From Candidatus Poribacteria bacterium (lineage in GTDB: Bacteria > Poribacteria > WGA-4E > WGA-3G), in the NCBI GenBank assembly GCA_022394755.1, contig JAGFCA010000024.1:12368-76367 (forward strand): a stretch of DNA of 64,000 nucleotides. The letters run 5' to 3'. Positions 5,227-39,204 of this stretch are shown one piece after another. A program made the position numbers and the translations under genes. The notes beneath the pieces are model-generated. The model saw only the letters and a program-made list of their open reading frames with translations. It did no database searches and had not been told where the DNA came from. Positions within the stretch are counted from its first letter, which is position 1. Each line of letters starts with the position of its first letter.

Positions 5227-5321
5227 CCTACTCTGAAATGATTACTATTTCTCTCCGTTTGATAGTCTGTAAGTTGAATGCTGTTCTGATAGAGATGTTC
5301 GAATAAGAGGTAAGATTGGAA

Positions 5322-6002
5322 ATGTTAATAAATGTAAATGATCTAACTAAAGTATATGAGATGGGTGATGTCCAAGTACATGCACTTAGAGGAGTCACCT
5401 TCAACGTTGATTCCGGTGAATTTATCGCTATTATGGGACCATCTGGATCTGGTAAGTCAACTATGATGGATATTTTAGGTTGTCTGGCAACGCCAACATC
5501 TGGAGAGTATTTTTTAGAAGGCGAAGAAGTAGGTAAATTATCTGACAACAGACTTGCTGATATTCGAAATAGGAAAATCGGTTTTGTGTTTCAATCCTTT
5601 AACCTTCTACCACGTACCAGTGCCCTACACAATGTAGAATTGCCATTGATCTATTCTGGATTAGGTAGAAAAGAAAGAAAAAGACGCGCTTTTGAGGCAT
5701 TGGAAGCAGTCGGTTTGGCAGATCGCGTTGATCACAAATCAACTGAACTCTCTGGTGGACAAGTTCAACGGGTTGCAATAGCACGCGCCTTAGTCAATAA
5801 ACCATCAATGATCTTCGCAGATGAACCTACTGGTAACCTTGATACGAGATCCGGTAATGAAATCCTTGCAATCTTTGATCGTCTCAATGAGGAAGGAAAT
5901 ACCATAATTATGGTAACACATGAACCAGAAGTGGCTGAACATGCCGAACGTGTACTCCATATTAGAGATGGTCTCATTGAGCGTGATGAAAGGCGAAACT
6001 AA
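5322..6002 (+). CDS. ABC transporter ATP-binding protein, MacB/LolD-type (ATPase only, no fused permease)
   Basis: Walker [10 protein letters not shown], signature [15 protein letters not shown], Walker [16 protein letters not shown] track starts at TTG 5316; ATG 5322 ([12 protein letters not shown]) preferred. Confidence 0.85.
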
Positions 6003-6978
6003 ACGTACTAACAAAATCCAGATTACTACTCCCTCCCGTCTTCATTTTTCATTAATTGATCTTAATGGAAAACTCGGTCGTATTGATGGTGGATTCGGCT
6101 TAGCAATTAACAATCCTAATTTTCAGATTATAGCTGAACCTGCTTCAGATATATATATACAATCTAAAGACTACCTGGATCGCGCTACAGAAATAGTTGC
6201 AACACTAAAGAAATCCCTCCCTTTCCCCGGTATAAACCTTAGGATAGTCAATGAAATTCCCAACCATAGTGGATTTGGTTCAGGGACACAACTATCTCTT
6301 GCCATTTCGACAGCAGTTAATGAATTATACAATCTAAATTTAACACATCCTGAACTTACTCATTTAGTAGGTAGAGGAGGCACATCAGGGATTGGTATTG
6401 CTGCGTATAAAAGGGGTGGATTCATAGTAGATGGAGGACACAAATATCCAGAGCAGAAAGCATCATTTCTCCCTTCTGCAGCAGTTGAAAATATATCACC
6501 TCCTCCAATTTTAGCACGTTATACTTTTCCTTCTTGGCCACTACTCATTGTAATACCAAATTGTAGGAAAATATTTGGAGAAGAAGAATTAGAATTGTTC
6601 CGGACACTATGTCCACAACCAGAAACAGTAGCACCGAAGCTATCACACTTATTATTATTGAAAATATTGCCATCAATTATTGAAGATGATGTAAAAAGTT
6701 TCGGCAATGCTTTGAACAGTATTCAGTCTTTTGGATGGAAAAAAGTTGAAATAGATGCTCAAGGAATAGAATTGAAAAAGACATTAGCATTCCTACAAGA
6801 TAGTGGTGCTTTAGGGGCAGGAGTAAGTAGTTGGGGACCGGCTATTTGTGCTGTTAGTGATAATATTGATAGGTTAAGACTAAAAACAGAGAATTTCCTA
6901 TCAACATTACCTAACGGTGGAACTTGTTTTGTAACCTATGCCAACAACAAAGGTGTAGAAATTAAAAAAGTTGACTGA
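5986..6978 (+). CDS. GHMP-kinase-fold protein, beta-RFAP synthase-like family (COG1907-like), hypothetical
   Basis: ORF track 5920..6978 overlaps the ABC ATPase; internal ATG 5986 (MKGETKR...) gives a 17-nt overlap. Motif [24 protein letters not shown] resembles the GHMP phosphate-binding loop. [19 protein letters not shown]-terminal pattern recalled from beta-RFAP synthase family. Assignment from memory, not searched. Confidence 0.4.
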
Positions 6979-30906: not shown

Positions 30907-30935
30907 TTGACAGAAACTATGACCAATTATATAAT
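30907..30935 (+). promoter_or_regulatory. Consensus sigma-70-type promoter (TTGACA-17-TATAAT) upstream of the dtxR-family operon
   Basis: TTGACA at 30907-30912, 17-nt spacer, TATAAT at 30930-30935. About 120 nt upstream of the ATG at 31058. Confidence 0.4.
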
Positions 30936-30990
30936 TTAGGCAGACCTAAATTTATTTTTTGACAATACTAATATTTTAATATCTCTTTCC

Positions 30991-31014
30991 TAAGTATAGA
31001 GGGGAATATACTTA
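30991..31014. promoter_or_regulatory. Palindromic candidate operator TAAGTATA-N8-TATACTTA between promoter and dtxR-family start codon
   Basis: Perfect 8-bp inverted arms separated by GAGGGGAA. Lies between the putative -10 and the regulator ATG, consistent with an autoregulated metalloregulator site (inference). Confidence 0.3.
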
Positions 31015-31057
31015 CTATTTACCGCAGGATGTTGACCGAAGTTGTCTATTTTGCGGA

Positions 31058-31732
31058 ATGGATACTATAATGTTAACACATGCGGCTGAAGATTATTTAA
31101 AGTCAATCTACAAGTTACAAGAAAAATGTGAGAAGGTGTCTACTGGTGTTTTAGCAGAATTTCTTGATGTCAAACCAGCATCTGCATCAGGAATGATTAA
31201 AAAGTTAAAGTCTATGAACCTGATTACCTACGAACGTTCCGTTGGGGTTACACTTACTGATGCTGGAAAAGAAATTGCATTGGAAATCATCCGACACCAC
31301 CGGTTATTAGAACTTTATCTGAATAAGGCACTCGGTGTGCCGTGGGATGTAGTACATGATGAAGCAGAAGTATTGGAGCATGTAATTTCTGAGGATGTTG
31401 AGGCAAGAATGGATGCTTTTCTTGGATATCCTACTGCTGACCCACACGGTTCACCTATACCTGACAAAAATGGGGTTGTTAAGCAAACTAAATCTATTCC
31501 AATGACCGACCTAATCTCAAGCCAATCTTGTGTTGTTGCAGAGGTGAGTGATGACGATTCTGCTCTACTAAGACATCTTGGTAACTTCAATCTATATCCC
31601 GGTACAACATTTAAGGTTATTGATGTTGCTCCTTTTGAAGGACCTTTTACTATAGATATTGCTGGACAAGAAGCAGTGATTGGACGGGAAGTAGCAAAAC
31701 ACATTATGGTAGAGAATGTAAAGGACACATAA
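31058..31732 (+). CDS. DtxR/IdeR/MntR-family metal-dependent transcriptional regulator with C-terminal FeoA/SH3-like domain
   Basis: N-terminal wHTH (AEDYLKSIYKLQEK...), metal-binding/dimerisation helix (RHHRLLELYLNKALGVPWDVVHDEAEVLEHVIS), C-terminal SH3-like domain. Confidence 0.85.
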   Translation: MDTIMLTHAAEDYLKSIYKLQEKCEKVSTGVLAEFLDVKPASASGMIKKLKSMNLITYERSVGVTLTDAGKEIALEIIRHHRLLELYLNKALGVPWDVVHDEAEVLEHVISEDVEARMDAFLGYPTADPHGSPIPDKNGVVKQTKSIPMTDLISSQSCVVAEVSDDDSALLRHLGNFNLYPGTTFKVIDVAPFEGPFTIDIAGQEAVIGREVAKHIMVENVKDT

Positions 31733-31735
31733 ATC

Positions 31736-32863
31736 ATGGATAAGAAAAAGAAGGTTGACAAAAAAACTATTAAATTATGGAAACACCATCTACAAGATGA
31801 AGTGGACGCAACTTTTCTTTATAGTGTCTTCGCAGAACTTGAAAATGACCCGGATCGTAAGGAGATACTTAGTGAATTGTCTAAAGTGGAAAGCAAACAT
31901 GTAGATAGATGGGAGGAAATGTTATCTACCTACGCTATAAAGTTCAAACATATTAAACCAAGCTTAAAGGCACAATTCTGGTCATGGTATGCACGTAACG
32001 TTGATAAGGTCTTACCTTTAGCACGAATGTTAAAAGAAGAAGCAAGTGAAGTTAAAGATTATATTGCACTTCATAAGAGCAGTACACATTCAGATGCAAA
32101 AGAAACAGCACTAATATTAGCAAAAGATTCAGCACAGCACACTGAAAGTCTTAATCAATTAACCGGTACATCCGATGAACCTTGGCACAAGACTGAATCT
32201 GGTGGTGTATTAGGTAATATCATTTACGGATTTAATGACGGATTGACAGCCAATTTTGGCTTGGTCGCTGGCGTAATTGCTGCATCAGAGAGTGTTCATA
32301 CGATACTTGTAGCAGGAATTGTTGGTACAGTCGCAGATTCGCTTTCAATGGGGGCATCTGGATATCTCGCTGCAAAGAGTGAACAGGAGGTATACGATCA
32401 TGAAATTCAGGTAGAAAAGGATGAAATTCGACTTATGCCTGATATTGAAGAAGAGGAACTTGCACTTATATATGCAGCGCGAGGTGTACCGAAAGAACAT
32501 GCACAAGAACTTGCAAAAGAGGTTATGAGCGACCCTGAAAGGGCATTAGAAGAGAAGATTCAAGCCGAACTAAAAATTGGTAAAACACATACGACTCCTC
32601 TCAGTGAAGGATGGATTACAGGACTTGCAACTGCGATTGGGGCATTCATACCGGTTGCTCCCTTCTTATTTGCTGAAGGCATGATTGCAATTTGGATCTC
32701 TTTTACACTGGCAATGTTGTCTCACTTCGTTGTTGGTTCAGCAAGAAGCTTGTTTACAGGTCGAGGAATAATTAGAAGTGGGTTTGATATGTTCATTGTT
32801 GGACTTGGTGTAGCAGGTGTTGGGTATCTTGTTGGGATGCTCTTAGATTATTTATTTTTTTAG
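31736..32863 (+). CDS. mbfA: Membrane-bound ferritin-like/VIT1 fusion protein (erythrin-vacuolar iron transporter family, MbfA-like)
   Basis: N-terminal ferritin/rubrerythrin-like four-helix region (EVDATFLYSVFAELE...ESKHVDRWEEML). C-terminal VIT1/CCC1 domain (GVLGNIIYGFNDGLTANFGLVAGV) with TM helices. Starts 4 nt after the regulator stop. Confidence 0.7.
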   Translation: MDKKKKVDKKTIKLWKHHLQDEVDATFLYSVFAELENDPDRKEILSELSKVESKHVDRWEEMLSTYAIKFKHIKPSLKAQFWSWYARNVDKVLPLARMLKEEASEVKDYIALHKSSTHSDAKETALILAKDSAQHTESLNQLTGTSDEPWHKTESGGVLGNIIYGFNDGLTANFGLVAGVIAASESVHTILVAGIVGTVADSLSMGASGYLAAKSEQEVYDHEIQVEKDEIRLMPDIEEEELALIYAARGVPKEHAQELAKEVMSDPERALEEKIQAELKIGKTHTTPLSEGWITGLATAIGAFIPVAPFLFAEGMIAIWISFTLAMLSHFVVGSARSLFTGRGIIRSGFDMFIVGLGVAGVGYLVGMLLDYLFF

Positions 32864-32869
32864 GTTATT

Positions 32870-33895
32870 ATGAAATTAAATTATAACTCTTTACATAAGT
32901 CGTGTATTACTTTTACAAAAATCATTAATATCCATATATTCTTAGGGTGTCTACTTATATTTAATCTTTTCATTCTCACTGGATGTAATCCGAAAAAAGA
33001 AGAAAAGTTAATTGAAAATGAGAAGATTCGTGTGGTTACAACAATTGGTATGATTACCGATATTGTAAGGAATGTTGGTGGTGACAAACTTGAGGTAATC
33101 GGTATGATGGGTCCAGGAGTTGACCCACATCTCTACAAACCTACCTTAAAAGACATAGAACGACTTAAATCCGCAAGTATCATATTCTATAATGGACTAC
33201 ATCTTGAATCAAAAATGGGTGATAAACTTGAACAATTATCAGGAAACACCAAGGTAGTTGCTGTTTCTGAGAACATTCCCACAAATCAATTACTGAAGTC
33301 CCCTGAATTTAAAGGACAATATGACCCACATATATGGTTCGACATAAATTTATGGATCAAAGCTGTAGAAACTGTACATGACACCCTTGTTGATTATAAT
33401 TCTGAATCAAAAGCAACTTTTGGGGAAAATACCGAAAATTATATTAGTAAACTTAGAGTATTGCATGAATATGTGATTAAACAATCTGAACGTGTTCCTC
33501 CTCAACAACGTGTGCTCGTGACTGCCCATGATGCATTTAACTATTTTGGAAATGCATATGGTTTCGAGGTGCGTGGACTTCAGGGAATGAGTACCGTATC
33601 TGAAGCTGGAATCGCTGATGTCAAAGAATTAGCATCATATATTGCTGAACATAAGATCCCTGCTATTTTTGTAGAATCTTCTGTACCTGTACGTAGTTTA
33701 GAGGCTGTTAAAGCAGCTGTGATATCAAAAGGGTTTAATGTAGAGATTGGTGGAGAATTATTCTCCGATGCTATGGGTAATGAAGGTACACCTGAAGGTA
33801 CATATATTGGTATGGTAAGGCATAATATTGATACGATTATTAGTGCTCTGTTAGGTGAATCTATAGAAATTGACAGTTATAAAAAGGAACAATAA
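32870..33895 (+). CDS. Metal (Mn/Zn/Fe) ABC transporter substrate-binding lipoprotein, TroA/ZnuA/MntC cluster-9 family
   Basis: Lipobox LTGC. Conserved [34 protein letters not shown]...[11 protein letters not shown]. Confidence 0.85.
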
Positions 33896-33897
33896 AG

Positions 33898-34641
33898 TTG
33901 GATGTACCGAAAACAAACGCAATCTCTGTGATGGATCTAACTGTAGCATACCATGAAACACCTGTCTTATGGGATATTGATCTTGATGTGCCACCTGGGG
34001 TATTATTGGCGATTGTTGGTCCTAACGGGGCAGGAAAAACTACATTGATCAAAGCAATTTTAGGATTAGTACGAACGGCATCTGGGAAAATACTTATTCA
34101 TAATAAACCTTATGAAGAACAGAGAAAAATCGTTGGTTACGTGCCACAACGTGGAAGTGTAGATTGGGATTTTCCTACAAATGTATTGGATGTAGTGATG
34201 ATGGGTCGTTATGGTTCGCTAGGCTGGATACGTCGTCCAAGAAAGAATGATCGTGAATTAGCAATGCATGCAATAGAAAAAGTTGGTATGGAAAAATACA
34301 GTAACAGACAGATAAGCCAACTTTCTGGTGGACAGCAACAACGTGTCTTTCTTGCTCGCGCACTTGTCCAAGATTCAAATGTATACCTAATGGACGAACC
34401 ATTTCAAGGGGTTGATGCAACGACTGAAAGAGCAATAGTAGGTTTATTACAGGAACTGCGTGAAAATGGTAAAACCGTCGTAGTAGTACATCATGATCTA
34501 CAAACTGTATCAGATTATTTCGATTGGGTAACCCTATTGAATATACGTCGAATTGCGAGTGGTCCTGTCCAAGATACGTTCACATCTGAGAATCTCAGAG
34601 AGACCTACGGTGGACGAATCGGCTTCATGAAAAACCGATAA
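33898..34641 (+). CDS. Metal ABC transporter ATP-binding protein (TroB/MntB/ZnuC-like)
   Basis: Walker [10 protein letters not shown], signature [15 protein letters not shown], Walker B YLMDEP. Confidence 0.85.
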
Positions 34642-34715
34642 ATTAACCTAATTTATCTGGATATTTCATTCATTTTACTTTCAATCTGAATCCACAAATG
34701 TTGGAAAAACTATAA

Positions 34716-35660
34716 GTGCCGAACTTTATTAATATCCTTCTCAACCATTTTGACTATACACTCATAATAGTTGCAATGGGTGCTGCATTTCTTGGTACAG
34801 TCAGTGGAGCACTTGGGACGTATGCAGTACTACGTCGTCAAAGTTTGATGGGTGATGCCATATCTCATGCATCACTGCCAGGTATTGCATTAGCATTTCT
34901 TCTCACTGGAACTAAGATGCACTTATTACTTATTCTTGGGGCAGCTATAGCAGGTTGGATAGGCACAGTAATAATCATGGCTATAGTGAGACTTACTCGG
35001 ATAAAATATGATAGTGCCCTTGCATTAATACTTTCAACCTTCTTCGGTTTTGGCTTGGTCCTTCACACACTCATTCAAAAAATGGGAAATGCAAATCAAG
35101 CAGGTTTGGATACCTTCCTCTTTGGTCAAGCGGCAACAATACTTAAACGAGATGTGATAACAATTGGGATACTCGGTGGTATTGTAATAATAATAATGCT
35201 GATTCTATGGAAAGAACTTAAAATACTAATTTTTGATGAAGGATTCGCGGCATCTATGGGTTTACCAATCAGAACACTTGATGTATTGTTAACCAGTCTT
35301 CTTGTAATTGCTATTGTAATTGGATTACAGGCGGTAGGGGCAGTTTTAATGAGTGCGATCATAGTAGCTCCTGCAGTAGCAGCCCGTCAATGGACAGACC
35401 GGTTCAGTGTGATGGTCTTGCTTGCTGGTTTATTTGGTGCTGTATCCGGTGTAATAGGGACTATCATTAGCAGCACCGCTGCCCATATTCCAACAGGACC
35501 AACAATAATTCTCACAGCAACCCTTTTTGTCATCATATCTATCACCCTTGCACCAAATAGAGGATTAGTTTGGAATAGTTCACGTCAACGTCGTTACAAC
35601 CGAAACCTAAGAATGGCATCAAACAAATTGATTGAACAACCACAACAGAAAAGCGAATAA
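34716..35660 (+). CDS. Metal ABC transporter permease (TroC/MntC-like)
   Basis: GTG start. Polytopic membrane protein of the ABC-3 family (DAISHASLPGIALAF). Confidence 0.8.
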   Translation: MPNFINILLNHFDYTLIIVAMGAAFLGTVSGALGTYAVLRRQSLMGDAISHASLPGIALAFLLTGTKMHLLLILGAAIAGWIGTVIIMAIVRLTRIKYDSALALILSTFFGFGLVLHTLIQKMGNANQAGLDTFLFGQAATILKRDVITIGILGGIVIIIMLILWKELKILIFDEGFAASMGLPIRTLDVLLTSLLVIAIVIGLQAVGAVLMSAIIVAPAVAARQWTDRFSVMVLLAGLFGAVSGVIGTIISSTAAHIPTGPTIILTATLFVIISITLAPNRGLVWNSSRQRRYNRNLRMASNKLIEQPQQKSE

Positions 35661-35665
35661 TTTCA

Positions 35666-36772
35666 ATGCAAGTTCATATTGAAATCCTACTCATTGCAAT
35701 TATAACTGCATCCGCATGTGCATTGCCGGGTGTCTTTCTGGTTTTGCGTAGGATGACTTTGATGAGCGATGCAATTAGTCATGCCATTTTACCTGGTATT
35801 GTAATTGCTTTCTTCTTTACCCATTCAGTTTCATCTCCAATCCTCATCCTTGCGGCAGCCGGAACGGGAATACTCACAGTAGTATTAGTAGAATTATTAC
35901 AGAAAACAGAATTAATAAAAGAAGATGCAGCAATTGGTTTAACTTTTCCTGCTCTATTCAGTATTGGGGTAATCCTAATCTCAAGGTATACCCGAAATGT
36001 CCATCTTGATATAGATGCGGTATTACTTGGAGAACTTGCTTATGCACCATTAAGTCGTTTAACTGTATTAGGTTTTGATATAGGACCAGTTGCATTGATG
36101 GTCATGACAGTGATATTGATATTGAATCTTGCTTTTATAGTTATGTTTTACAAAGAACTAAAGTTGGTTACATTCGATGTTGGTTTGGCAGCAACATTAG
36201 GTTTTGCCCCCACGCTTATTCATTATGGTTTAATGACATTAGTTTCTATAACAACGGTAGGGGCATTTGATGCGGTTGGATCGATTCTGGTTGTAGCACT
36301 AATAGCAGGACCCGCTGCTACTGCCTATTTAATGACGAATAGTCTTGCACAGATGTTATTTCTTAGTGCAGGTGTGGGTAGTGTCAATGCAGTAATAGGG
36401 TATTTACTTGCTTACCGTTTTGATGTATCTATCGCTGGAACTATTGCAACAGTAACATTCTTGGTATTTGGAATAGTATTTCTACTGATTCCAAACCGTG
36501 GTTTACTTTCAATTGCACGTAGACACTTACGCCAGAAATGGGAGTTTGCACAAACAATGCTTGTCATTCACCTACTCAACCATGAAGGTTTACCGGAAGC
36601 ATTAGACGAATCGGAAATTTCACATTTATATGAACATCTACAATGGGAACCTACGTTTGCATCTAAGGTTGTTAGGTATGCTCTTAACAACAGATGCGTT
36701 TCTCAAAATGATTCGCAACTCATCCTAACAGATCGAGGCAGAACTATAGCAGAACAAGCACTAATCCAATAA
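35666..36772 (+). CDS. Metal ABC transporter permease (TroD/MntD-like) with ~90-aa C-terminal cytoplasmic extension
   Basis: ABC-3 permease core (DAISHAILPGIVIAFF). An extra soluble tail after the last TM (RRHLRQKWEFAQTMLVIHLLNHEGLPEALDESEISHLYEHLQ...). Confidence 0.8.
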   Translation: MQVHIEILLIAIITASACALPGVFLVLRRMTLMSDAISHAILPGIVIAFFFTHSVSSPILILAAAGTGILTVVLVELLQKTELIKEDAAIGLTFPALFSIGVILISRYTRNVHLDIDAVLLGELAYAPLSRLTVLGFDIGPVALMVMTVILILNLAFIVMFYKELKLVTFDVGLAATLGFAPTLIHYGLMTLVSITTVGAFDAVGSILVVALIAGPAATAYLMTNSLAQMLFLSAGVGSVNAVIGYLLAYRFDVSIAGTIATVTFLVFGIVFLLIPNRGLLSIARRHLRQKWEFAQTMLVIHLLNHEGLPEALDESEISHLYEHLQWEPTFASKVVRYALNNRCVSQNDSQLILTDRGRTIAEQALIQ

Positions 36773-36825: not shown

Positions 36826-39204
36826 ATGATAAAAGTATTACATTCTATTTTAATCTCAATAATAGTCTTAAACGTTGCAGGTATATCCTTTGCTGATGAA
36901 GATTCCTTAAAAAATCCTGACGGTACATGGAAATGGACAAATAGACTTATCAATGAAACAAGTCAATACCTATTACTTCATGCACATAATCCTGTTGATT
37001 GGTATCCGTGGGGAGATGAAGCATTATCACGAGCAAAAAAAGAGAACATGCCGATATTCCTTTCTGTAGGTTATTCTACTTGTCACTGGTGTCATGTGAT
37101 GGAACGTAAAGTTTTCTCCAATCCAGAAATCGCTAAACAGATGAATGAGAACTTTATCAATATCAAACTTGACCGTGAAGAACGACCAGATCTTGATGAA
37201 ATCTATATGACAGCAACCCAGTTGTTGATTCAACATGGTGGATGGCCAAACTCAGTTTTTCTTACTCCTGACCTAAAACCTTTCTATGCTGGAACCTACT
37301 TTCCTCCAACTGACCAACCCAATAGACCTGGATTCCCTACAGTTCTTGAAGCAGTAAGTGATGCTTGGAAAACAAGAGAAGATGAAGTAATTGAATCTGC
37401 GGATAAAATCACACAGTTTATAGAAGTTGCTACAAGCAAAGGATTTACAACACTAATTGAACAACCACTTGATAGATCTTTGATAACTGGTGCAGTTGAT
37501 TTCCTTAAATCCAAATATGACAAAACCAATGGAGGTTTCAGTATTGCCCCGAAATTCCCAAGTCCATCGAATCTTGAATTCTTACTTAGAGAATACCGTA
37601 GAAGAGTGAAATTAAGTAATCCAACCAAGGATGACGAATCGTTATTGAAAATGGTAACACATACCTTAGATATGATGGCTTATGGAGGAATCTATGACCA
37701 GATAGGTGGAGGATTTCATAGATACTCTGTCGATGCAAAATGGCTTGTACCACATTTTGAGAAAATGTTATATGATAACGCATTGTTAGCCAAACTATAC
37801 CTTCAAGCATATCATATCACTGAAAAACCGTTATATCGTCGTATAGCAGTAGAGATATTCTCTTTTATCAACCGTGAAATGACACATCCTGACGGTGGTT
37901 TTTATTCTGCCATTGATGCAGAAACTGATGCAGAGGAAGGGAAATATTATATATGGACAGAAGATGAGATAAAAGGTTTTCTTGATGCGAAAGAGACAAA
38001 ACAATTCACTACAATTTATGGAGTTGACAAAGGGGTAAATTTTGAAGGTAAGAATGTTCTATACGTGCCTGAAACCGATAACTCTGAAGCGTCTATACAA
38101 TCTTTGGGTACTTTAAAAGAAAAGTTATTAAATGCCAGATATGAACGGGAACGTCCCCTATTAGATACAAAGATACTCGTGAGTTGGAATGGATTGATGA
38201 TTGATGCTCTTGCATACGGATATGAAATCTTAGAAGAAGAACAGTATTATACAGCTGCATCAAAAGCAGCACAATTTATACTTGATTCTGTAACTAAACC
38301 AGATGGAGAACTCTGGCATTTGTCTACATCTAATGTTGCTAAAGTTGATGGATTTCTGGATGATTATGCTTTCTTTATTCAAGGACTACTCACTTTATAT
38401 GAAGCAAGTGGTGAAGAAAAGTGGTTAATCTATGCTCAAGAACTTACGAAAAAAATGATTGACCTATTCTGGGACGATATGAATGGGGGGTTTTATTATA
38501 CAAAAGCAGATGATAAACATCTGATTGTTCGGTCCAAAAAACCGCACGATTCAGCTGTGCCATCGGGAAATTCTGTCGCAGTCAACAACCTTTTGATTCT
38601 TCAAGAAAAAAGCAATCAATTATCAAGAAAAAATGAAGTAGTTAATTACAATGAATTTGCAGAGACAACCCTACGGAGTTTTGCACAAGCAATGGACGAG
38701 ACCCCATCATCATTTATGCATATGTTATATGCATTCAATGCTTATCTTATTTCAGAAGGGCACGATAACTTACCCGTTGGGGACTTTGCAGCTAACCTGA
38801 CGACTCAATCTATTGTTAGGGCAGAGGTCAATATACCAACTGACTCAATGGGAGATGTATTTGATGTAGAAGTACAAGTAATAATTAAAGATGGATGGCA
38901 CATAAACGCAAATCCAACTGGTCAAGAGAATCTTATACCAACAACTATTTCAGTTCCAGATGACTCATCTATCACAATTTCTGATGTGAAGTATCCAGTA
39001 GGTAAATCCGTAAAATTTGAATTTAGTCCTGATTTTCTAAACGTATATGAAGGAACATCGACATTCAATTTAAAGATAGAACAAAATGAGAATATTGCTC
39101 TGAACAAAAACAATCAGATAATACTAAGACTCAACTATCAAGCTTGCAATGAGACGGAGTGTCTACTTCCTCAAACATTAGATATTCCATTGAATATTAA
39201 GTAA
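36826..39204 (+). CDS. Exported thioredoxin-fold YyaL/DUF255 family protein (six-hairpin glycosidase-like central domain) with C-terminal DsbD-alpha-like domain
   Basis: Signal peptide. [16 protein letters not shown]...[15 protein letters not shown] thioredoxin-like CxxC. C-terminal [16 protein letters not shown] resembles the C-x(4-5)-C-[YL]PP motif of DsbD N-terminal domains. Confidence 0.7.

Follow-up and report, generated by a model that had tools for sequence, protein, structure and literature searches.

Transition-metal importers and exporters are normally regulated in opposite directions. Among the described systems, the tro operon of Treponema joins the importer genes troABCD to the gene of a DtxR-family repressor, TroR, and DR2539 of D. 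radiodurans is a regulator of the same family that acts at the promoter of mntH (dr1709). On the exporter side, the MbfA proteins of B. japonicum and A. tumefaciens have been described as limited to alpha-proteobacteria, and ferroxidase activity together with Fe2+ export is known for these alpha-proteobacterial proteins only (PMC7762939). A bacterial VIT1-family gene under a DtxR-family regulator, dip0116, has been reported from C. diphtheriae (PMC13001254). Here we analyse a stretch of 64,000 nt of a Candidatus Poribacteria genome (assembly GCA_022394755.1, contig JAGFCA010000024.1, positions 12,368 to 76,367 of the forward strand), which is called the window below. Between positions 30907 and 36772 it carries a promoter and, on the plus strand, genes for a DtxR-family regulator, an erythrin-VIT1 fusion protein (Er-VIT1) and a TroABCD-type importer. 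On balance, we read this region as an autoregulated metal-homeostasis operon in which a troR-like regulator, erythrin-VIT1 and troABCD stand behind a near-consensus sigma-70 promoter. More tentatively, it may be one case of a recurrent, undescribed design in which a MntR/TroR-type repressor co-represses an importer (Tro, Nramp or Feo) and an erythrin-VIT1 exporter, starvation bringing Mn2+ in and Fe2+ out; the poribacterial version would add a leader RNA. The parts, namely the tro operon, MntR-type control and the MbfA-type exporter, are known; their combination is new, without being a new kind of system.

Gene content and conservation of the locus

The six reading frames and their domains listed in the preliminary description of this DNA were all recovered (Pfam). 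The first gene (31070-31732) is predicted to encode a metalloregulator of the MntR/DR2539/TroR type with a revised length of 220 aa. It passes the cut-offs for three domains, with 64.6 bits for Fe_dep_repress, 103.4 bits for Fe_dep_repr_C and 61.5 bits for FeoA, and has the layout of the DtxR/MntR family, that is, a winged-helix DNA-binding domain, a dimerisation/metal-binding domain and a FeoA/SH3-like domain. The gene most likely starts at the ATG at 31070 (MLTHAAEDYLK), which every orthologous locus conserves together with its context; the ATG at 31058, which is not conserved, was rejected as a start.

The Er-VIT1 gene (31736-32863) follows with an ATG that begins 4 nt after the end of the regulator's stop codon, a spacing that had been given correctly, and would encode an MbfA-like, putative Fe2+ exporter (possibly Fe2+/Mn2+). 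Its membrane domain scores 196.8 bits against Pfam VIT1 and matches Eucalyptus EgVIT1 (6iu3) at 1.2e-25 by sequence and at E = 9e-7 by fold, with the DGLT and SMG stretches conserved; this is the C-terminal VIT1 transporter domain of Er-VIT1/MbfA proteins, in which the residues for transport and for cytoplasmic metal binding are kept. The erythrin motifs have been defined as Ex6Y, ExxH, Ex6Y and ExxH (PMC7714665), and the N-terminal 155 residues hold exact copies of three of the four (E22-Y29, E52-H55 and E102-Y109). When the full-length structure model was searched with Foldseek, the helical bundle of the N-domain resembled ferritin-like proteins at probabilities of 0.96-1.0, with weak E-values of 0.5-1.3. 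The label MbfA-like is reasonable for this architecture, and a working di-iron site is unproven.

The importer is of the Tro type. Its substrate-binding lipoprotein (32870-33895, with an LTGC lipobox) matches T. pallidum TroA (1toa/1k0f) at 4e-92 and conserves all four ligands (DPH85, DPH152, TAHD218 and FSD298), which gives the His-His-His-Asp set, without a His-rich loop, of Tro-type binding proteins. The TroB-like ATPase (33898-34641; Pfam ABC_tran) scores 255 bits against the NCBIfam manganese/iron ABC ATPase model NF011630, below the equivalog cut-off. Two different permeases come last, one TroC-like (34716-35660; 314 aa; Pfam ABC-3, 232 bits) and one TroD-like (35666-36772; 368 aa; Pfam ABC-3), and the Tro type is characterised by this combination of a single ATPase with two unlike ABC-3 permeases, of which the second is longer by about 60 aa.

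The TroD-like permease has a C-terminal extension of about 90 aa (residues ~278-368) that is almost invariant across Poribacteria (RQKWEFAQTMLVIHLLNHEGLPEA...LTDRGR) and that gives the protein the length of Treponema TroD (366/367 aa). A weak winged-helix match was obtained for it (Pfam WH_AprA, E = 0.0097), and hhalign set it in register with the helix-turn-helix and wing of the regulator, at 15% probability; a BLASTP search for it as a DtxR-like DNA-binding domain returned nothing. The extension could be a DNA-binding or regulator-binding domain carried by the transporter.

We gathered 52 loci around VIT1 homologues, of which 48 are poribacterial, a few of these being the same contig twice. 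Homologues of the VIT1 protein at 74-93% identity number in the hundreds, and every named one is labelled Candidatus Poribacteria. Regulator, Er-VIT1, TroA and TroB stand in identical order and strand in 48/48 poribacterial loci, and the two permeases come next save at contig ends and in one genome (L022/L026), in which one permease was detected. The importer/exporter coupling pointed out in the window is genuine and no accident of one genome, given this constant order and the fact that Nramp and Feo importers are coupled in the same way elsewhere. Neither tro genes nor a regulator adjoin four non-poribacterial VIT1 homologues (51-59% identity). Loci L022 and L026 are two contigs of one assembly with near-identical copies of the locus, in which the gap between regulator and VIT1 is 368 nt, the leader is short (the operator box O1, described below, lies 61 nt before the start codon) and a second permease was not detected.

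A metagenome scan returned 80 non-poribacterial Er-VIT1 loci; none of the 80 contains tro genes, and in most, which belong to a high-GC lineage, the Er-VIT1 gene is alone. A Nramp/MntH gene lies 5' of Er-VIT1 on the same strand in four loci (L080, L109, L114 and L129), three of which have a DtxR-family regulator ahead of Nramp, the fourth (L114) being a 1.8-kb fragment that ends inside the Nramp gene. A second protein search identified the lineage with these modules as Ignavibacteriaceae, Melioribacteraceae and Calditrichaceae, and seven genomic contexts were examined there. Two have the order regulator, Nramp-Usp, (GH20b), Er-VIT1, and one, from Melioribacteraceae, has regulator, FeoA-like protein, FeoB, Er-VIT1; in three Er-VIT1 is stand-alone, and in the last it lies at a contig end with the upstream side out of view. 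A box of the O1 class, TTTAAG-N4-CTTAAA (e.g. TTTTTAAGTATGCTTAAATT), precedes each of the five examinable regulator genes of the Nramp/Feo modules, where it adjoins or overlaps a TTGAC-type -35 about 40-55 nt before the start codon. Three unrelated importer families are thus found in a module of this kind, with a DtxR-family repressor and Er-VIT1. The remark that such coupling is unusual also stands, as the C. diphtheriae VIT1 gene and MbfA show the opposite logic. We found no description of a link between MbfA/VIT1 and MntR, mntH or Poribacteria in the open-access literature searched, which is no proof of novelty.

Two features of the sister modules were also observed. The Nramp/MntH protein is fused to a C-terminal Usp domain in L080 (3826-5751), L109 (472-2367), L133 (3072-4964) and L134 (905-2830). 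In the Melioribacteraceae locus L135, a 341-aa protein encoded between regulator and FeoB (1702-2727) has Fe_dep_repr_C and FeoA domains and no DNA-binding domain on record, and the regulator has Asn at the manganese-type Asp8 position (KENYL), as in TroR.

Promoter, operator and leader RNA

The promoter (30907-30935, plus strand) is of the sigma-70 type, with TTGACA at 30907-30912, a 17-nt spacer and TATAAT at 30930-30935. All 12 of the 12 consensus positions agree, as had been described, and it is the only perfect sigma-70 match in the window, where 0.03 are expected from dinucleotide shuffles. That the promoter is real is borne out by the conservation of both hexamers in the orthologous poribacterial promoters.

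A perfect 20-bp palindrome, AATTTAGG-CAGA-CCTAAATT (30933-30952), which the preliminary description had missed, shares bases with the -10 hexamer and spans the predicted transcription start; judging from the position of the -10, that start would lie near 30942, at the centre of the palindrome. We call this palindrome O1. When the upstream regions of all loci were aligned, the conserved -35 and -10 hexamers were followed by TTAGGyATrCCTAA with AT-rich flanks, directly abutting the -10, and this core occurs with no more than two mismatches at the -10 of nearly all orthologous loci. O1 is single in each 15-kb locus and always 5' of the regulator gene, the exception being a duplication in L048. 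DR2539 has been crystallised on the operator of its mntH promoter, ...ATTTTAGTCGCGCCTAAAAT (bioRxiv 10.1101/2024.02.12.579695). Of the 20 bases of this operator, 14 are identical in the O1 of the window and 16 in that of locus L008, and O1 and the operator have the TTAG-N6-CTAA geometry and the AT flanks in common. An AT-flanked TTAG...CTAA palindrome, overlap with the promoter and conservation among orthologous promoters are features of DtxR-family operators, all present here. O1 is very probably the operator of the encoded regulator; because it covers the -10 hexamer and the transcription start, its binding would be expected to occlude RNA polymerase.

Most Poribacteria have a second box, O2, about 40 bp downstream of O1, with the sequence TT(T/A)GG-N9-CCTAA and the 19-bp spacing of DtxR/IdeR boxes. 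Its CTAA is invariant in 37/37 aligned leaders. The left half has diverged in the clade of the window, where the remnant (30975-30993) keeps the right half CCTAA (30989-30993) alone.

Several rearrangements around these boxes were noticed. The leader of L002 (~6213-6251) has three tandem copies of CCTAAGAGTATAG, that is, of the conserved CCTAAG half-box with the start of the hairpin region. In L003 (5276-6322) and L011, which are the same contig twice, an insertion sequence element with a DDE_3 transposase (5309-5881, minus strand) lies between the promoter with its O1 box (5276) and the leader with the regulator gene; here the operon may have been cut off from its operator. L048 has two tandem copies of the promoter-O1-O2 segment (5845-6060), spaced about 157 bp, 5' of the regulator gene.

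A different palindrome, TAAGTATA-N8-TATACTTA at 30991-31014 (plus strand), had been put forward as the candidate operator. It is indeed a perfect 8+8 inverted repeat between promoter and regulator gene, and what remains of O2, the invariant CCTAA, runs into its left arm, both of which would suit a new type of box for the DtxR-family regulator. Such a role is nevertheless highly improbable. The palindrome lies some 50-70 nt downstream of the predicted transcription start, in the place of a covarying RNA hairpin. The arms pair 8/8 by Watson-Crick rules in the window and only 3-5/8 in its four closest relatives (L001, L002, L006 and L007; 86-93% Er-VIT1 identity), which have diverged here while their O1 arms are unchanged. 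Further copies of TAAGTATA-N8-TATACTTA were sought in the 64-kb window, and none was found beyond chance-level matches with three mismatches. Of the dinucleotide shuffles of the AT-rich, 307-nt intergenic region, 9% contain a perfect inverted repeat whose arms are 8 nt long and whose loop does not exceed 12 nt, and the window contains 59 perfect short-loop repeats with 8-nt arms; taken alone, the palindrome is not statistically striking and is weak evidence. It does not show the features of DtxR-family operators listed above, and a classical-type box is present at the promoter itself. In other Poribacteria its place is taken by unrelated yet pairing sequences with compensatory and G-U changes, which points to RNA structure and not to a protein site. 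The observation that this palindrome differs from classical DtxR/MntR boxes was correct as to the difference and mistaken as to its being a box: it is unlike them for the reason that the box lies elsewhere, namely in the palindrome of classical type that abuts the -10.

The same position is part of a structured 5' leader RNA (30989-31072, plus strand), made up of a hairpin, H1, and a long stem, H2, that encloses inner helices. In the window CCGCA at 31022-31026 pairs with TGCGG at 31052-31056 to form H2, and the leader stops just short of the ribosome-binding region and the start codon. Elsewhere in the phylum the H1 position holds hairpins of quite different sequence (e.g. GGTAGGT...ACCTACC and GGGGA...CCCC), after which a conserved ACCGCA pairs with a conserved TGCGG just 5' of the ribosome-binding region, with two more helices inside. 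A four-helix structure that we specified was tested with controls on a MAFFT alignment of 32 leaders, in which 84% of the cells are paired, versus 26-45% when partners are slid by 1-3 columns; both sides have changed in 43 cells, versus 20.2 +/- 3.7 in shuffles, and compensatory changes are seen in 12 of 21 pairs. A covariance model built from these 32 sequences, the window excluded, matches the window at 30989-31072 (28.8 bits, E = 3e-4) and also recovers further leaders outside the training set. In the model-based alignment 83.6% of cells are paired and 72 are compensatory, versus 31.6 +/- 5.3 in shuffles; the slid controls of both alignments together pair at 26-47%. From the raw MAFFT alignment RNAalifold retrieved no more than H1 and the base of H2, the inner helices coming from the specified structure, and Infernal places the H1 of the window a few bases out of register, so that equivalence is claimed for the position and not base for base.

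Because many of the pairs are G-U pairs on the sense strand, the structure is better explained as RNA than as a palindrome at the DNA level, and we conclude that the 30991-31014 palindrome is this genome's version of leader hairpin H1, not an operator. Neither the window leader nor the best-conserved leader (L018) gave a match better than E = 0.15 among the Rfam 15 families, metal riboswitches included; the leader may be a phylum-specific, new cis-regulatory element. In the closest relatives L001, L006 and L007, CTCTTTCC pairs with GGAAAGAG over 6-8 bp around the CCTAAG box, at the equivalent of window positions 30982-31006. In the window, mutation has turned the right arm of that hairpin into GGGGAA, and TAAGTATA and TATACTTA form a new hairpin whose position partly overlaps the old one, which suggests selection for some hairpin at the H1 position and not for a particular sequence. 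Also considered was a short upstream reading frame (MLTEVVYFAEWIL in the window) that ends in a stop overlapping the regulator ATG; it was rejected, being present in only 5 of 37 leaders.

Metal specificity, mechanism and rival explanations

The solved structures nearest to the regulator are M. tuberculosis MntR (5zr4, 3.7e-41) and DR2539 (8pvt, 8.4e-41, over query residues 2-136), followed by ScaR, SloR and then the streptococcal 6o5c; IdeR and DtxR are more distant. The ligands of DR2539 were mapped through the alignment of regulator and structure, with residues numbered from the ATG at 31070, and 14 of the 15 that lie in the crystallised part, the domains for DNA binding and dimerisation, are kept. 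These include a primary site (D8, E100, E103 and H104), a binuclear ancillary site (H77, E81, H96, D124 and H126) and a tertiary site (E72, H76, E108 and E111). K11 replaces Glu11 of MntR, and D161 in the SH3-like domain is available to match Asp163 of DR2539. The counterparts of Met10 and Cys102 of DtxR are Asp8 and Glu100 here; there is no Met or Cys at the positions of iron preference of DtxR/IdeR, and the ligands correspond to the Asp8, Glu99, Glu102 and His103 set of MntR that marks the manganese subgroup. The recognition helix reads PASASGM, compared with PASVTGM in DR2539, and includes the unusual Gly (Gly41) at helix position 5. Among the NCBIfam MntR equivalogs (Thermus, Bacillus and E. 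coli types), the best score was 190 bits for the Thermus-type NF047407, with a cut-off of 350, and the others scored lower; by these models the regulator is related to the named MntR types and would be an equivalog of none. We moderately favour Mn2+ as the main effector, on the grounds of the ligands present, of the closest relatives and of the Nramp genes that take part in the sister modules.

What the sequences show is the layout of the locus and its conservation, the likeness of O1 to an operator of solved structure, the pattern of metal ligands and the covariation in the leader RNA; the mechanism that we propose goes further, its inferred elements being promoter occlusion, Mn2+ as effector and Fe2+ efflux by Er-VIT1. 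The metal-loaded regulator dimer would bind O1 (30933-30952) and block RNA polymerase, giving autorepression, with most likely Mn2+, possibly Fe2+ as well, as effector; the second box about 40 bp downstream, half-lost in the window, probably helps in most Poribacteria. Falling cytoplasmic Mn2+ would lead to derepression, upon which TroABCD would import Mn2+ and Er-VIT1, made from the same mRNA, would remove cytoplasmic Fe2+, presumably by efflux. The removal of Fe2+ would either raise the Mn:Fe ratio or vent Fe2+ let in by a poorly selective importer. Er-VIT1 may thus plausibly act as a relief or exchange valve for Fe2+.

A number of points weigh against this reading. TroA-type proteins bind several metals. 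In the regulator, Asp130 of DR2539 is replaced by Ser128, the sole substituted ligand, and both DR2539 and T. denticola TroR respond to Mn2+ and to Fe2+, so that metal specificity is not certain from sequence. In Er-VIT1 the fourth erythrin motif deviates, being DSAQH (D131-x3-H135) here and ESAxH in most homologues, and not ExxH; the N-domain reaches only 18.3 bits against Pfam Rubrerythrin (E = 0.003), below the gathering cut-off of 22.8, and the AlphaFold model is of moderate confidence (mean pLDDT 69). The Feo-linked module suggests that iron may be the imported metal in at least one lineage, where Er-VIT1 would then handle the importer's own metal. A second copy of O1 was not found in the 64-kb window, so a wider regulon is not definable there. 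Finally, known Er-VIT1/VIT1 genes are iron-induced and not co-repressed with importers (PMC13001254, PMC7762939).

Two of these points favour the main rival, in which the regulator senses Fe2+, or Mn2+ together with Fe2+, Tro imports that metal, and Er-VIT1 is a safety valve for the same metal, made in advance and of low affinity, against overshoot when metal suddenly returns while the importer is at its peak level. Besides the dual response of DR2539 and TroR, it could call on the Melioribacteraceae module, which has FeoB, normally an Fe2+ importer, and a regulator with Asn at Asp8, like TroR, and on the description of VIT1 proteins and MbfA as iron transporters. We judge it rather unlikely, although sequence alone cannot separate it from Mn/Fe exchange: the window regulator has the all-oxygen/nitrogen ligands of the manganese type with Asp8 and Glu100, its nearest solved relatives are manganese sensors, Nramp/MntH is the partner in four of the five importer-linked non-poribacterial modules with a regulator in view, and co-expression of an importer and an exporter of one metal would be an energetically wasteful cycle. 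It is improbable that Er-VIT1 moves Mn2+ and not Fe2+ out, for instance to load periplasmic or exported proteins, and that the operon is a manganese-trafficking unit. This would agree with the presence of Er-VIT1 in manganese-type operons of several lineages, but Mn2+ export would be counter-productive during manganese starvation, the VIT of Plasmodium falciparum has been reported as selective for Fe2+ over Mn2+, and erythrin is a domain of the di-iron ferroxidase type that MbfA needs for iron export.

We consider it likely that regulator to troD form a single co-regulated transcript, and the earlier view of one transcription unit with a VIT1-type exporter and a Tro-type importer agrees with the tight spacing, with the failure to predict any plus-strand terminator and with the lack of an operator in the longer regulator-VIT1 gaps of other genomes. 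It is improbable that VIT1 and the tro genes, together or singly, are read from internal promoters of their own under other regulators, adjacency being mere gene order. Regulator-VIT1 gaps of 145-368 nt in some Poribacteria could hold a promoter, and several weak promoter-like matches lie inside genes; yet the VIT1 ATG begins 4 nt after the regulator stop in the window and the gap is 7-70 nt in many relatives, the long gaps (L022, L026, L036, L037, L040, L045 and L048) are filled by repeat-like insertions in which O1/O2 boxes and extra operators or promoters were absent, the promoter-like matches number 33 versus 24.6 +/- 4.4 in shuffles, which is no clear enrichment, and the same gene order occurs with three importer families. 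The gaps of L036, L040 and L048 (145-195 nt), and similarly that of L037, consist of related repeat-rich DNA with inverted ends, GGCTATCGGCTGTCGGCTATCGGTTAAG ... CTTAACCGACAACTGA; the enlarged gaps look like small mobile insertions and not like regulatory sites.

Behind troD lies, at a distance of 53 nt, a reading frame for a 792-aa secreted protein (window 36826-39204) with a DUF255/Thioredox_DsbH domain and a C-terminal DsbD_N domain. No terminator is predicted between the two genes, and the synteny is found in most poribacterial loci. In one Ignavibacteria-like genome (L138, 6224-6676) a small Thioredox_DsbH gene lies directly 3' of a stand-alone Er-VIT1. The DsbH-type neighbours may indicate a functional link to periplasmic redox chemistry.

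What makes the locus of interest is that an exporter-type protein stands on the promoter and operator of an importer across an uncultured phylum, and with three unrelated importer families. Because this wiring is conserved phylum-wide and recurs behind the same type of operator, it is better read as a functional rule than as an accident, and the rule could be the balance of Mn and Fe by coupled exchange or a relief valve made in advance at maximal uptake. If true, the role of MbfA-type proteins would extend beyond the iron stress of alpha-proteobacteria. The analysis further provides poribacterial metal regulation with a concrete candidate operator and adds a leader RNA motif that may be new, and it illustrates that a striking palindrome of one genome can mislead without comparative data.

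Comparison with known systems

The Treponema tro operon is alike in its TroA homologue, with the identical His-His-His-Asp ligands at the 4e-92 match given above, and in an ATPase followed by two ABC-3 permeases of closely similar sizes (TroC 304/298 aa and TroD 366/367 aa, versus 314 and 368 aa here; PMC2628430). Both have a DtxR-family repressor, that of T. denticola also with an SH3-like C-terminal domain, and a sigma-70 promoter with a dyad-symmetric operator, which overlaps the promoter in T. pallidum. The order troABCD-troR of Treponema is not matched, as the regulator gene is last there and first in Poribacteria, where the order is regulator, Er-VIT1, A, B, C, D; no Er-VIT1 has been reported from the treponemal operon, whereas here it is inserted between regulator and troA. 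Treponemal TroR further differs in having Asn10 where the poribacterial regulator has Asp8, and the poribacterial operon begins with a leader of about 128 nt that has conserved RNA structure.

DR2539 is a strong match to the regulator, which shares the 14 of 15 ligands, including the 'tertiary' site that its authors call non-conserved in the family, the Lys in place of Glu11 of MntR, the Gly at position 5 of the recognition helix and, at the mntH (dr1709) promoter, the TTAG-N6-CTAA operator. It differs in controlling an unlinked mntH, not being in an operon with its targets, in having Asp130 where Ser128 is found here, and in a regulon from which no Er-VIT1 has been reported.

MbfA of B. japonicum and A. 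tumefaciens has the architecture predicted for the poribacterial protein, an N-terminal ferritin-like (erythrin) four-helix domain and a C-terminal VIT1 domain, with the Ex6Y, ExxH and Ex6Y motifs in common; its fourth motif is ExxH by definition, in place of which the poribacterial protein has DSAQH. MbfA is regulated by Irr and belongs to iron and peroxide stress (PMC7762939), in contrast to the poribacterial gene, which lies behind an MntR-type operator in an importer operon and is for that reason predicted to be expressed at metal scarcity. The dip0116 gene of C. diphtheriae is likewise a bacterial VIT1-family gene under a DtxR-family regulator, but it is among the genes most induced by high iron via DtxR (PMC13001254), in the customary reciprocal pattern of an exporter made while importers are shut off, whereas the poribacterial gene shares its promoter and operator with an importer.

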